Positions 8,611 through 12,251 of a stretch of DNA of 32,000 nucleotides are shown here, one piece after another; positions within the stretch are counted from its first letter, which is position 1, and every line of letters starts with the position of its first letter. The translations under genes and the position numbers were made by a program. This stretch comes from Promethearchaeum syntrophicum. GTDB lineage: Archaea; Asgardarchaeota; Lokiarchaeia; Sigyniarchaeales; Promethearchaeaceae. The stretch spans positions 1,200,001 to 1,232,000 of the forward strand of contig NZ_CP042905.2 in the NCBI RefSeq assembly GCF_008000775.2, read 5' to 3'. A model generated the notes under the pieces. That model was not told the origin of the DNA. It saw only the letters and a list, made by a program, of their open reading frames with translations, and searched no databases.

Positions 8611-9675
8611 ATGAAAAATATGGAATTAATACTTTTTATGGTAAAAGATGGTAAACTTGTCAAAATCGACAAACCGGTCTTCACAACTGGAGACGCCTAC
8701 GTTGCCATTGATGAAGCAGCAAAAAAAATTTATGTTTGGCTCGGTTCAAAATGCAGTGTTGATGAAAAAGGTATTGCCGCTGTCGAGGCACGAAGAATAG
8801 ATGATGGACAAGTTTTTAATGGCACAGCAAAAATTTTGACGTATGATGAAGGCGATGAATCTCCTGAATTTCTCTCAAAAATCGGAGGATTAAAAGTTAT
8901 TGATAAGAACCTAGCTAAGAGCATGTTGAAGGATGTTACTACAGGCGAATTTGCCGGACAAGCCGATCATGTTAATGCATTGTATCGAATTTCAAGTGAA
9001 GAATTTGATGGAATAAATGCAATTAAATATATTCAAGTTCCATTTGAACGTAGTTCACTTGATTCAGAAGATTGTTTTATCGCCGATCTTGGTGTAGATA
9101 TCTGGGTTTGGCAAGGATCTGCAACGAACGTAAAAGAAAAAGTGAAAGCAGGACAATTTGCTCGTGAATTTGATGCCGATCGCGCAGGTGCCCAAAGACC
9201 GAGAACATTCATGGAAAATGATGGCGATGAAGAATTTATGGGAATCTTTGAAGGAATACTTCCAAAACAAGATCGGGAAACAGTAGATCTTAAAGTTGAG
9301 GCGTTTGAAGAAAGCCAACCTGAACCAGTTCAAGTTCCAAAACCGGTACAAGTTCCAAAACCAGTTCATGTCCCAGAACCCGTTCATGTCCCAGAACCTG
9401 TACACATCCCAGAACCCGTTCATGTTCCAGAACCAACACCAACTCCAGAACCTGTACCTGCTCCCGAACCAACTCCAGAACCCATTTCTCATATGGATAT
9501 GTTAGTACAAAAAGGATCTGGACGTTTAACTTGTCCTCGCTGCGGAAATCTGAATAAATCAATGATTCGTGAGGTGGAAGATCGCACTAATATATTGATG
9601 GATTACCCCCTAATTTACGGAAAGAAGTATATTTGTGGGGAATGTGGGGCCGAATGGCGAAAAGAAGAAGTTTAA
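8611..9675 (+). CDS. two-domain gelsolin/cofilin-fold protein fused to a Pro-rich tandem-repeat spacer and a C-terminal zinc ribbon
   Basis: Domain 1 (nt ~8611-8910): [63 protein letters not shown]. This matches human gelsolin G1, [62 protein letters not shown]. Domain 2 (nt ~8953-9255): [39 protein letters not shown]. This matches G2, [39 protein letters not shown]. Then come the PEPVHV repeats and CPRCG...CGECGAEW. Confidence 0.9.
9319..9486 (+). repeat. in-frame 18-bp tandem repeat encoding P-(E/K)-P-V-(Q/H)-(V/I), six clean units plus about three degenerate PEPT/PEPV units
   Basis: Clean units occupy 9319-9336, 9337-9354, 9355-9372, 9373-9390, 9391-9408 and 9409-9426 ([36 protein letters not shown]). 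They are followed by [20 protein letters not shown]. Confidence 0.9.
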
Positions 9676-9809
9676 GAAGTGAAAAGAATTCGCTTTGACC
9701 TTTTTTCAATTTTTTCATTTATTAATTAAAATTTTTTAATAGAATTTTGTGGTAATTTAGATATTATTCATAACATTAAATTTAAATTCACAAAGAAAAA
9801 TGTTTTGAT

Positions 9810-11903
9810 ATGGAAGTGCTTATCAGTTTCATAATAAAAAATCTTGAAGGCTATACCGATCGGAAAATTCAGAAAGATTTTCCTGAAGATATGCTTTTTA
9901 TCGAGGTATTAAATGAAATCCTAAAAATAATAAATGGTAATATCACTTTGGACAAAATTTCAGTGATTTCAGCGATGAAAGGTCTATTTTCCTATGAAGA
10001 TGCTCGAAAAACTGTAAAAGAAATTGTTGCTATGCATTTATTTGAATTTACAATTACGAAGAGAGATTTAGTTAACGGACCCAACTTGATGTTAAAAGAA
10101 ATAACCTCAACCCAACCTGAAGAAGATTCTTCAAAAGGAATGCAATATGGATACTTAAAACCTAAAATTGAATCCAAACCAACTCCTCAACCAGATTTTA
10201 TTCAAGAACCAGTTCACATTCAAGAACTTGTTCCAGAACCAACTCAAGAAATTAAATCTCTTGAGTCTGAAATTATTGGTGAAAAATTAAGTGATATAGG
10301 TGCAATCGGAGGAAAAAAAGACACATCAGAAGTAGAATTGTTTTTTGCTGAAAAGAAAGAAAGAAAAAAGGTAAAAAATGAAATATTAGATGCAAAAGAA
10401 GCAATAGATAGAATGGATGATATGTTAAAAGAATCACCAGTAGAAGATCTGCTTTATAAAGCAAAGAAAGAAACTAAATTAACCGTTGATGATAGTTTAG
10501 AAGATAAATTAAAAAAGTCAGAAGAAAAAGATTTGAAATTATCCACTCATGCTCCTTCTGCTCCCGCAAGTCCACCTGCTAGTCCGCCTAAATCTCTCCC
10601 CCTATCGTCTGGATCTGCTCCACCACCACCTGGATCTGCGCCTAAATCACCTCAAACCCTTCGTGGTGGAATGACAGAAGAATTAAAAACTTTATTCTCA
10701 AAAACGAAGGAAGAGGAAACGGTTGAACCTCCTGCGGAACCTGCTGCTGATCTTTTTGCTCGTCATCATATGTCAAAAAGGAAACCTAAGTTATCTACTG
10801 AATCTGTTTCTGAATCTGCTCCTGAACGACGACGTGACTCATCAAAACCTTCACCTAAAAAATCTTTTCCTCCTCCCTCTCCGTCACCTCCTCCTCCTTC
10901 TCCAGAACCTGCTGTTACATCAGCAAGCTCTCAACCATTTTCAATTAAGCAAAAAAAGAAAGGTAAAAAAATGGGAGCAAGAATGAGGTCTTTAGCTGTT
11001 AAAACTGAAGAAGTTGAAGAGACTGCTATCAGTTTAGGTGAAAAAATTAAGGAAAAGAAAATCGCGGATGATTTTGATAATGATTTTGGAGCTGTAGAAG
11101 AAAGAGAAGAAGAAGTGTTAGAAAATTTCATGGAAACAAAGGTTCCAACAGAATTCCCTCCGTCTCAAGAATCTACAATATTGCCTGAAATGGCCGGATT
11201 AGCTAAAGAAATTGAGACTTCAAAGGAATATCAAAAAAATATCGCAATTGAATATTTTGATAAAATGAACCCAAAGAAATATTACCCTCTTCTTATCGAT
11301 ATCTCAGATTTAGAGCAAGCAACCACTATTAGCGAGGAAAATATCCTCACTGGAGAACGAAAGGTTCAGGTAAAAGAAACAATGGCTGTTGTTCTTAAAA
11401 GTAGTATTGTTAAAGTCAAACCGATGTTCCCCGGATGTAGCATTGTCCCCGAAGAAAGATATACTGACCTTGATGAGAAAGAAGATAAACTGACTTTTTA
11501 CGTTACTCCACTTGTGGATGATGAAATTGAAGCAGGTCGGATTGAATTTATCGATAGTGAAGGAAACATATTCCATTCTGCTCCCACACCAACAAAAGTC
11601 GAAGATCCTAGATATGCAAGGGTAATTGCATTATATGGTGGTCTAGCAAGTTTTCTTCCTAAAATTTTAGAGGGTTTAGGTTTTAGCTTTACCGAAGATA
11701 CGAATATAGCCACTCTCCTTCCATTTTTGCAATCAGTTCTTGGTGATATGAATCTTTCCAATTTTATCGGAATATCTGGAATACTAATCACAATTATCAT
11801 TTGCATAATCACTGTGATAGTTAGAAAACCGAATTCGGTTAAGAAAAAGTTTAAAGTCGCGCGAGTTGGTAGGTTAAAATCCGCAACTAAGGCGGTAAAG
11901 TAG
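9810..11903 (+). CDS. tail-anchored, largely disordered proline-rich protein of unknown function
   Basis: Small N-terminal globular region. EPVHIQELVPEPT spacer motif at nt 10203-10250. K/E-rich coiled-coil-like segment. Pro-rich block 1 APSAPASPPASPPKSLPLSSGSAPPPPGSAPKSP (nt ~10551-10650). Pro-rich block 2 FPPPSPSPPPPSPEP (nt ~10861-10915). Beta-rich C-terminal domain. A single C-terminal TM span FIGISGILITIIICIITVIV (nt ~11763-11822) is followed by a basic tail. Confidence 0.7.
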   Translation: MEVLISFIIKNLEGYTDRKIQKDFPEDMLFIEVLNEILKIINGNITLDKISVISAMKGLFSYEDARKTVKEIVAMHLFEFTITKRDLVNGPNLMLKEITSTQPEEDSSKGMQYGYLKPKIESKPTPQPDFIQEPVHIQELVPEPTQEIKSLESEIIGEKLSDIGAIGGKKDTSEVELFFAEKKERKKVKNEILDAKEAIDRMDDMLKESPVEDLLYKAKKETKLTVDDSLEDKLKKSEEKDLKLSTHAPSAPASPPASPPKSLPLSSGSAPPPPGSAPKSPQTLRGGMTEELKTLFSKTKEEETVEPPAEPAADLFARHHMSKRKPKLSTESVSESAPERRRDSSKPSPKKSFPPPSPSPPPPSPEPAVTSASSQPFSIKQKKKGKKMGARMRSLAVKTEEVEETAISLGEKIKEKKIADDFDNDFGAVEEREEEVLENFMETKVPTEFPPSQESTILPEMAGLAKEIETSKEYQKNIAIEYFDKMNPKKYYPLLIDISDLEQATTISEENILTGERKVQVKETMAVVLKSSIVKVKPMFPGCSIVPEERYTDLDEKEDKLTFYVTPLVDDEIEAGRIEFIDSEGNIFHSAPTPTKVEDPRYARVIALYGGLASFLPKILEGLGFSFTEDTNIATLLPFLQSVLGDMNLSNFIGISGILITIIICIITVIVRKPNSVKKKFKVARVGRLKSATKAVK

Positions 11904-11942
11904 AAAAAAGATATTTTTTTACCTGATATATATTTACAAAAG

Positions 11943-11960
11943 TTTTTTTTCCTTTTTTTT
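11943..11960 (+). terminator. T8-CC-T8 tract downstream of the 697-aa gene
   Basis: TTTTTTTTCCTTTTTTTT lies about 40 nt after the stop at 11901-11903, in a convergent intergenic region. This is an archaeal oligo-T terminator type. Confidence 0.4.
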
Positions 11961-12065
11961 CGAGTTCATCTAATATCTGTAAAATGATAAAAAATTGATA
12001 TAAGAGGATTATTGAAAGATAATAATGAAAAAATGAAATTTATTTAATGTTTAATGAGATTTCTA

Positions 12066-12251
12066 TTAATCTTTATCCCATGACCATTCTATTCCACACT
12101 TACCACAGATATATTTTTTTGCAAAAATTACTGGATAATCCATTATCTGATGAGTTTTGTCATCTACTTCTCTAATCATATTCCGGGTATAATTTCCACA
12201 CTTTGGGCACTCTAATCGAGAGCCTCCTTTCTGAACAAATTTTTCGCTCAT
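12066..12251 (-). CDS. stand-alone zinc-ribbon protein, paralog of the gelsolin protein's C-terminal domain
   Basis: CPKCGN ...30 aa... CGKCGIEW. It shares 33 identical positions of 56 in my ungapped hand alignment with aa 295-354 of the 8611-9675 product (VQKG..RL.CP.CGN....MIREV.D.T...MDYP.I..KKYICG.CG.EW). Confidence 0.75.
   Translation of the reverse strand: MSEKFVQKGGSRLECPKCGNYTRNMIREVDDKTHQIMDYPVIFAKKYICGKCGIEWSWDKD

Follow-up and report, generated by a model that had tools for sequence, protein, structure and literature searches.

Three neighbouring genes in a 32,000-nucleotide stretch of the Promethearchaeum syntrophicum MK-D1 chromosome (NZ_CP042905.2, positions 1,200,001 to 1,232,000; hereafter the window) encode a two-domain gelsolin ending in a zinc (Zn) ribbon, a 697-amino-acid (aa) protein that we call P697, and a free-standing copy of the Zn ribbon, Zn61. 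A sequence-only reading of this locus had proposed that the three genes form a membrane-tethered actin-regulatory module. The part of this proposal that holds, and that is thereby partly rescued, is the link between gelsolin and the free ribbon: the two genes are syntenic in three genera, and an ortholog of Zn61 is enriched in a published Lokiactin co-immunoprecipitation (co-IP). On balance, we consider it probable that the locus carries a known gelsolin, a retained paralog of its Zn ribbon and, in P697, a gene that lies outside any module.

The reading had also stated that no system of this composition had been described, which is incorrect for two of the three parts, both published in Akil et al. 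2022 (PMC9433394). Because the gelsolin was already in print along with its spacer and Zn domain, the finding as first written adds little; the idea that the domain is a portable module was likewise known. What is new is modest, namely that a free ribbon is kept downstream of gelsolin in three genera and that the Lokiarchaeum ossiferum ortholog shows a co-IP enrichment that had gone unremarked. This gives a concrete and testable lead to what the Zn domain does, as its free ortholog sits beside gelsolin and co-purifies with Lokiactin. The spatial placement of the few actin regulators of Asgard archaea bears on the origin of the eukaryotic cytoskeleton.

All three open reading frames (ORFs) lie where the sequence-only reading had placed them, with Zn61 convergent on the other two. 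The features discussed below are as follows (RPKM, reads per kilobase per million; HMM, hidden Markov model; TRF, Tandem Repeats Finder).

8611..9675, + strand: MKD1-2DGel gene (DSAG12_01672, QEE15845.1), 354-aa ORF; Pfam Gelsolin E = 2e-19; RPKM 390
9322..9477, + strand: 18-bp tandem repeat encoding the nine-unit P-x-P-V-x-V (PEPVQV-type) linker spacer of the gelsolin; TRF
9490..9666, + strand: C4 Zn-ribbon domain of the gelsolin (aa 294-352); HMM domain E = 7e-34
9676..9809, + strand: intergenic spacer between gelsolin and P697; sequence read directly
9810..11903, + strand: P697 (DSAG12_01673, QEE15846), 697-aa ORF, genus-restricted orphan; RPKM 282
10203..10244, + strand: PEP-type spacer QEPVHIQELVPEPT in P697, said to be common with the gelsolin linker
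10554..10625, + strand: first Pro-rich block of P697, aa 249-272 (PSAPASPPASPP...APPPP)
10869..10910, + strand: second Pro-rich block of P697, aa 354-367 (PPPSPSPPPPSPEP)
11754..11900, + strand: transmembrane helix of P697 (aa 649-671) and basic tail; hydropathy 2.98
12066..12251, - strand: Zn61 (DSAG12_01674), free-standing 61-aa Zn ribbon; BLASTP E = 3e-28; RPKM 182

The gelsolin gene and its free-standing Zn ribbon

The product of the first gene carries two repeats of the Pfam family Gelsolin (PF00626; 69.6 bits against a cut-off of 21). A WH2-like motif of the L-x-x-V type, LKDV, lies between the first and second domains (SMLKDVTTG in the translation), and a linker and the terminal Zn ribbon follow. 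Homologs of this protein number 327, the majority of them full-length, and among 25 orthologs residues D108 and V109 do not vary, while L106 and K107 hardly do. The protein encoded immediately downstream, P697, is 100% identical to QEE15846 (DSAG12_01673) of the 4.3-Mb MK-D1 chromosome, and MKD1_2DGel is given as QEE15845.1, the directly preceding accession, in the preprint 10.1101/2025.11.30.690169. Akil et al. 2022 (PMC9433394) describe MKD1-2DGel as having two gelsolin domains, an LKDV-type WH2-like motif, a 79-aa linker, nine PEPVQV repeats and a C-terminal (CxxC)2 Zn domain, and the nine PEPVxV repeats and the linker of about 79 aa in the window agree with this description. On the strength of the neighbouring accession, the listing as QEE15845.1 and the agreement in repeats and linker, the gene at 8611-9675 is the published MKD1-2DGel.

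Imachi et al. 2020 list the genes consecutively as DSAG12_01672 (gelsolin repeat protein, 351 aa), DSAG12_01673 and DSAG12_01674 (both hypothetical). As the published annotation of DSAG12_01672 is 351 aa long and orthologs begin with 'MELILF', translation probably starts at the ATG at 8620 rather than at 8611. With rabbit actin, the protein severs and caps filaments and sequesters monomers in a Ca2+-dependent manner (Akil et al. 2022, Commun Biol 5:890, PMC9433394). Within its linker, a tandem repeat of period 18 (9322-9477; 6.3 and 2.9 copies) specifies the nine P-x-P-V-x-V units; the linker is hypervariable across orthologs and gives a weak NCBIfam match to the TonB Pro-rich spacer (E = 3.9e-5, far below the cut-off).

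The terminal ribbon is much more uniform across the 25 orthologs, in which G-R, C-P-x-C, Y, K-K, C-G-x-C-G and W are invariant and D-Y-P nearly so. Zn61 aligns with the gelsolin ribbon of the window without gaps at 33 identities in 52 positions (63%, or 56% over the full length; BLASTP E = 3e-28), a likeness well beyond chance. Both ribbons carry the (CxxC)2 signature with C-P-x-C, C-G-x-C-G and the D-Y-P tip (HMM E = 7e-34 and 1e-26).

We characterized the family by searching 1.84 billion representative proteins exhaustively with a profile, in place of a word-indexed search that had returned only 4 proteins. The profile search yielded 246 cluster representatives, 149 of them with E <= 1e-10. 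The ribbon is found at the extreme C-terminus of proteins or as a stand-alone protein: of 148 representatives, whose lengths range from 45 to 920 aa with 20 of no more than 100 aa, 144 have 9-25 residues after the last CxxC. In a Pfam census of 126 multi-domain members, the partners are mostly coiled-coil-like, several with bZIP/TSC22-like coiled coils, and also include TPR, Ras/Roc, LRR and gelsolin domains. The 40 residues preceding the ribbon contain at least 15% Pro in 21% of members versus 2.7% of background windows, so a Pro-rich tether is a family-wide habit and nothing peculiar to the MK-D1 locus. Akil et al. 2022 (PMC9433394) had noted the Zn domain both at the C-termini of unrelated Loki proteins and in small stand-alone proteins. 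The gelsolin assignment, the free-standing paralog and the portability of the ribbon, all proposed from the sequence alone, are borne out by these results.

Genomic context was assessed around the 2DGel-Zn genes of 80 GTDB species representatives and in 7 further contexts of P697 homologs (locus numbers are preceded by L). The 2DGel-Zn gene is complete in 77 of the species-representative loci; in these, no extra Zn-domain ORF occurs in 419 kb of upstream sequence versus 32 in 450 kb downstream. Of the 56 loci having at least 6 kb of downstream sequence, 29 carry a second Zn-domain gene. Genes of the Zn61 type lie 0.15 to about 4.5 kb downstream of 2DGel in three genera, with different intervening genes. 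The 61-66-aa products from Promethearchaeum, Harpocratesius and Lokiarchaeum have mutual distances of 0.04-0.28 and stand at 0.36-0.41 from their own gelsolin ribbons. As they are closer to one another across genera than to the ribbon next door, their sequences identify them as mutual orthologs, that is, as an old duplicate kept nearby. The pairing of 2DGel-Zn with a small Zn gene is therefore conserved across lineages. In L013, L014 and L016, an 85-aa Zn gene follows 2DGel on the same strand after 158 bp. Its nearest sequence is the gelsolin ribbon of its own locus, a relationship that marks an independent tandem duplication.

Two further observations concern the distribution of Zn-domain genes. 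In the large Loki clade, 2DGel is followed at 2.8-5.4 kb by a gene for a Zn-domain protein of about 111 aa whose 60-aa N-terminus is unannotated (L017:13416-13751 and about 25 other loci). These proteins form a distant subfamily (distance ~0.7), and their genes share a block with those for GtrA, an EMC3/YidC-like protein and a radical SAM enzyme. In addition, some 2DGel-Zn loci (L025, L030, L035, L037, L039, L047, L056, L057, L063 and L070) come from metagenome-assembled genomes with unexpected titles, namely Thor-, Hermod-, Hod- or Odinarchaeota and in one case 'Nanopelagicaceae bacterium'. These titles probably reflect naming or binning issues, and because of them record titles are no guide to whether the Zn domain is 'Loki-only'.

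A published data set from L. ossiferum B35 bears on the function of the free ribbon (preprint 10.1101/2025.11.30.690169). The gelsolin of L024 is B35_2DGel1 (UYP47817.1, GNAMCCOK_04136) of this strain. The small Zn ORF of the locus, four genes from 2DGel1, encodes 62 aa from its ATG with a calculated mass of 7.371 kDa; the exact molecular weight and the gene order identify it as GNAMCCOK_04132, which is thus the L. ossiferum ortholog of Zn61. In the Lokiactin co-IP, GNAMCCOK_04132 (7.37 kDa) was detected with 4 peptides, 59.7% coverage and 23 spectra, at a log2(actin/IgG) of 1.74 (P = 0.0046, adjusted P = 0.029). It passes the thresholds of the authors (log2 > 1, p < 0.05) alongside five gelsolin-homology proteins, whose log2 values are 2.08-3.97, with actin itself at 4.44. 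In the proteome its log2 abundance is 21.08 versus 20.11 for 2DGel1, or about twofold higher. The authors left the protein unremarked. Other proteins of 4-10 kDa that rank high in the same co-IP are GNAMCCOK_02875, 02393, 03085, 03900 and 02738 (Supplementary Table 2).

The position of Zn61 could also be a relic of a local 3'-end duplication, with the ribbon having an unrelated function or none and the co-IP signal being non-specific. The independent tandem duplicates of L013, L014 and L016 show that copies do arise locally, the genes between gelsolin and the Zn gene vary freely and hence form no operon, the co-IP rank is modest among dozens of proteins, and the Loki Zn domain does not bind filamentous actin (F-actin) in vitro. 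Nevertheless, the duplicate is older than the split of the three genera, still lies within 4.5 kb and has kept every family-invariant residue. It is transcribed in MK-D1, its L. ossiferum ortholog is among the more abundant proteins of that organism, and this ortholog enters the co-IP list together with the five gelsolin-homology proteins. A relic is for these reasons rather unlikely in our judgement, and we continue with the reading in which the free ribbon is a retained partner of gelsolin.

The neighbours of 2DGel that are genuinely conserved lie on its other side. One is a paralog of TFIIB ('TFIIB 2' in Imachi 2020; 7390-8307, - strand), divergent to gelsolin and 75-95% identical in 9 loci. 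The other encodes a 744-aa protein (5079-7313, - strand) with an FG-GAP/BBS7-like beta-propeller and four C-terminal repeats of about 75 aa, each ending '...PRGY'; identity is 76-81% within Promethearchaeum and 35-39% in Harpocratesius, L. ossiferum, L010 and L011.

P697 and the region between gelsolin and Zn61

The sequence-only reading had asked whether the neighbourhood is conserved and had named a lack of synteny in related genomes as grounds for giving up the trio; for the middle gene, the related genomes do lack it. Conservation extends to three genera for gelsolin and the free ribbon and to a single genus for P697. A P697 gene follows gelsolin only in Promethearchaeum-like genomes (the window, L001/L002, L003, L006, L086 and L087), where the neighbourhood is collinear in its entirety over 10-12 genes (propeller, TFIIB, 2DGel, ..., OsmC, TusA, a helix-turn-helix gene and CDC48); co-location of all three genes was found in no genome beyond these fully collinear close relatives. 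The equivalent slot holds no P697 gene in Harpocratesius, Lokiarchaeum and about 70 other Loki species. Harpocratesius (L008) lacks P697 and has its gelsolin and small Zn gene at a spacing of 150 bp. In L. ossiferum (L024) the two are separated by OsmC, an RNase III-like gene and a 916-aa SIR2-like gene. In the large remaining Loki clade the gelsolin lies in a different block, with an aminotransferase gene upstream and, on the downstream side, genes for a 425-aa coiled-coil protein, GtrA, an EMC3/YidC-like protein and a radical SAM enzyme. A filter for proteins of similar build (at least 450 aa, at least 7% Pro, a transmembrane segment only near the C-terminus) recovered only true P697 homologs, and no other 2DGel locus has a P697-like architecture. 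The most divergent homolog, P0010 in L004, has neither gelsolin nor a Zn gene nearby.

Even among close relatives the three genes are interrupted. A gene for a 710-aa LVIVD-repeat surface protein (Pfam 1.5e-75) separates 2DGel from P697 in L003 and L006, and a nitroreductase gene separates P697 from the Zn gene in L003 and L086. With the LVIVD gene inserted in two close relatives, the slot between 2DGel and P697 behaves as an insertion hotspot, and P697 is most likely an unrelated insertion in the variable slot between gelsolin and Zn61.

Several of the genes in this region deserve mention in their own right. The LVIVD protein (L006:8116-10248, L003:1150-3288) is a beta-propeller with N- and C-terminal hydrophobic segments. 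The L. ossiferum locus (L024:7979-11981) encodes an RNase III-like protein of 199 aa and the 916-aa protein with a SIR2_2 domain, which could be a defence gene. An unannotated family of about 330 aa with an N-terminal transmembrane segment (27-43% identity) lies just downstream of the gelsolin/Zn pair in relatives other than Promethearchaeum (L008:8540-9529, L010:3673-4638, L011:7430-8425, L024:12652-13677) and is absent from the MK-D1 window.

True homologs of P697 number only 11. In this family a conserved N-terminal domain (aa 1-120) is followed by a hypervariable middle, charged and rich in Pro, and by a strongly conserved C-terminal domain (aa 472-697), of which aa 472-646 precede the membrane anchor. 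No match was found to Pfam (the whole protein, and four segments to E = 10), NCBIfam or PDB profiles beyond low-complexity noise; two metagenome scans, one with automatic patterns and one with a hand-made pattern from DKMNPKKYYP, produced no further relatives, and the literature searched contains no mention of the protein. The cytosolic body is probably largely disordered.

Most of the features that had been reported for P697 are present. The Pro blocks occupy aa 249-260 and aa 354-367, with APPPPG at aa 268-273 and a longest unbroken Pro run of 4. A short conserved helix motif, LRGxxTxELKxLF, follows the first block, and the PPPPGSAP...LRGxxTxELKxLF and PPPSPPP islands are semi-conserved within the variable middle. 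The first island (aa 268-305, 10611-10724; PPPPGSAPKSPxxLRGxxTxELKxLF), which includes a short predicted helix amid the disordered region, has a pattern of conservation that could mark a linear binding motif. The hydrophobic segment (about aa 649-671, Kyte-Doolittle 2.98) and the spacer QEPVHIQELVPEPT are also there, and there is no N-terminal hydrophobic signal. A textbook tail anchor is the less likely description, because the segment is followed by a tail of 26 residues with 11 Lys/Arg. The AlphaFold2 model of P697, built from an alignment of 11 sequences, is unusable (mean predicted local distance difference test, pLDDT, of 37); it places helices at 600-622, 633-644 and 649-671. In the distant homolog P0010, the helices equivalent to aa 600-622 and 649-671 both score as transmembrane. 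Given this, the basic tail, the acidic loop before the hydrophobic segment and the positive-inside rule, the anchor is probably a hairpin of two transmembrane helices (amphipathic aa 600-622 and aa 649-671) with both ends predicted to be cytoplasmic.

The spacer motif of P697 had been proposed as a link to the gelsolin linker. Its end had been placed at 10250, and the corrected extent is 10203-10244. The best alignment between linker and P697 consists of 10 identities in 20 positions of Pro/Glu-rich sequence (pairwise E = 0.005), and in homologs the spacer region is lost or swapped for other PEP repeats. The shared motif is generic PEP-rich low complexity. Concerted evolution or gene conversion between the two spacers was considered and ruled out: in a 6 x 6 matrix of linker-versus-spacer scores, pairs from one genome do not exceed pairs across genomes, and there is thus no sign of conversion or co-evolution in the six genomes. 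A weak residual signal is that PEP-type runs occur in 4 of 706 neighbouring ORFs, all 4 in the gelsolin or P697 families.

Between gelsolin and P697, oligo-T runs come immediately after the gelsolin stop codon, and an A/T-rich TATA-like box, TTAAATTTAAAT, precedes the P697 ATG by about 30 nt. These sequence elements suggest that the two genes are separate transcription units. In MK-D1 all three genes are expressed at ordinary levels (gelsolin 390, P697 282 and Zn61 182 RPKM; neighbours 249-453).

The proposal of a single three-gene module, in which the Pro segments and PEP spacer of a P697 scaffold recruit actin machinery and the ribbons dock gelsolin and the free ribbon to it, can be judged against these data. 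It draws on the membrane anchor, the transcription of all three genes, the semi-conserved PPPPGSAP and PPPSPPP islands with the conserved short helix in a disordered region, and the rarity of PEP-type spacers outside the two families. It also draws on the arrangement of 2DGel and P697, which lie on the same strand, 135 bp apart, and are adjacent or nearly so in all six Promethearchaeum-like genomes. This constancy tells against our own account, and a lineage-specific partnership between P697 and gelsolin is conceivable. Against the module, however, the synteny is no wider than the collinearity of the whole neighbourhood in one genus, unrelated genes interrupt the trio in close relatives, Harpocratesius keeps the pair closely spaced without P697, the spacer likeness has no own-genome specificity, and 2DGel and P697 are separated by terminator-like T-runs and a TATA-like box. 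P697 has no detectable WH2, EVH1, FH1/FH2 or GBD domain (Pfam to E <= 10 on segments; PDB profiles), and Loki profilin-1 and -2 do not bind VASP polyproline (PMC8410842); these two results weaken the analogy with scaffolds of the WASP/VASP/formin type on which the proposal leaned. We therefore regard a single module as very unlikely. Its strongest version, in which P697 is the receptor of the ribbon in Promethearchaeum and yields a membrane-tethered gelsolin, is likewise very unlikely.

Possible roles of the Zn ribbon

A confident AlphaFold2 model of Zn61 has a Zn-ribbon fold (pLDDT 83) with a long hairpin (residues 25-36/41-48). In a Foldseek search with this model no match was significant (E >= 0.18; 0.18-0.5 for TFIIS/Rpb9/TFS; template-modelling (TM) score about 0.5), and the best neighbours were the Thermococcus celer RPB9/TFS ribbon (1qyp), TFIIS, Rpb9/A12/C11 and RNase P Rpp21. 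All matches to Pfam Zn-ribbon families were below threshold (13-18 bits against cut-offs of 21-33), including the TFIIS-type ribbon PF01096 (13.5 bits against 21); the tip is D-Y-P, without an acidic hairpin.

These neighbours raise the possibility that the ribbon binds nucleic acid or polymerase, either as a TFIIS/Rpb9/TFS-type ribbon or as a small RNA-binding protein, and that Zn61 is unrelated to actin. Weak matches to TFIIB/TFIIS ribbons and to the 'putative Zn-ribbon RNA-binding protein' PRK14890, an isoelectric point of 8.4 for Zn61, the bZIP/TSC22-like coiled coils of several family members and the TFIIB paralog next door are all in keeping with such a role. The structural and Pfam matches are sub-threshold throughout, however, the D-Y-P tip is not the acidic loop of TFIIS, a GFP-tagged Loki tail expressed in human cells gave a diffuse and not a nuclear signal, and the L. 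ossiferum ortholog co-purifies with actin. We consider a nucleic-acid role quite improbable.

We return to the reading in which ribbon and gelsolin act together, for which a specific mechanism may be put forward tentatively. The gelsolin core regulates actin in a Ca2+-dependent way, as is known from the work of others with rabbit actin. The PEPVxV spacer, being TonB-like, would serve as an extended tether that allows the core to reach filaments from an anchor point. At that point, the ribbon, which is specific to the Loki lineage, may dock to one common partner associated with the actin cytoskeleton, through a surface that would comprise the invariant D-Y-P at the hairpin tip, K-K, R and W. 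The free ribbon would occupy the same site and act as a competitor, adaptor or bridge. Docking by the ribbon is supported by its family-wide conservation and by the co-IP, and Akil et al. 2022 (PMC9433394) judged that the conserved Tyr-tipped loop of the Zn domain "likely has binding potential". Docking with competition in this specific form is a possible mechanism to which we give somewhat less than even weight.

A broader and more doubtful extension is that the ribbon is an address tag, by which dozens of proteins with nothing else in common (gelsolin, Ras/Roc GTPases, and TPR, LRR and coiled-coil proteins) would be docked via Pro-rich tethers at one Lokiactin-associated site. That the abundant free ribbon encoded beside gelsolin might tune the occupancy of such a site is a similarly speculative suggestion.

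Several observations weigh against the reading in which ribbon and gelsolin act together. GNAMCCOK_04132 is only about 55th by ratio in a long co-IP list. Small basic proteins can be sticky and bind non-specifically. The linkage of the 111-aa Zn proteins to gelsolin may be coincidental block synteny. On its own, the Zn domain of Loki2DGel failed to co-sediment with rabbit F-actin, and in human cells the signal of the GFP-tagged tail was diffuse (Akil et al. 2022, PMC9433394); any link between ribbon and actin would, in view of these two results, be indirect or specific to Lokiactin.

Comparison with known systems

Among eukaryotic proteins, villin and gelsolin offer a parallel in overall design, with a gelsolin-repeat core, then a flexible linker and, at the C-terminus, a small autonomous domain that provides a second binding function. 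MKD1-2DGel differs in having two repeats rather than six and a Zn ribbon rather than the villin headpiece, and the Loki version of that ribbon did not bind F-actin in vitro. The linker itself resembles the rigid (Glu-Pro)n/(Lys-Pro)n spacers of TonB, to which its PEPVxV/PKPVxV units show a weak match, and is probably an extended tether; as the gelsolin has neither the TonB C-terminal domain nor a membrane anchor, the analogy is one of spacer type only.

The ribbon is like those of TFIIS, Rpb9 and archaeal TFS in having four Cys residues, three strands and a long beta-hairpin, with 1qyp as the best Foldseek neighbour (TM score about 0.5). It is unlike them in that the match is not significant (E = 0.18), the tip is not acidic, the Pfam score is below the cut-off and the context is a different one. 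Like WASP, Ena/VASP and formins, P697 has a long disordered region with short motifs containing PPPP and is probably associated with membranes, but its Pro runs do not exceed 4, it has no detectable WH2, EVH1, FH1/FH2 or GBD domain, and its family is limited to one genus.

The nearest described system is that of MKD1-2DGel and Loki2DGel (PMC9433394), which concerns the same gene and was published without its genomic context. To that description the present analysis adds that a stand-alone Zn gene keeps its place downstream, that this gene is orthologous across three genera and that its L. ossiferum counterpart is enriched in the co-IP.

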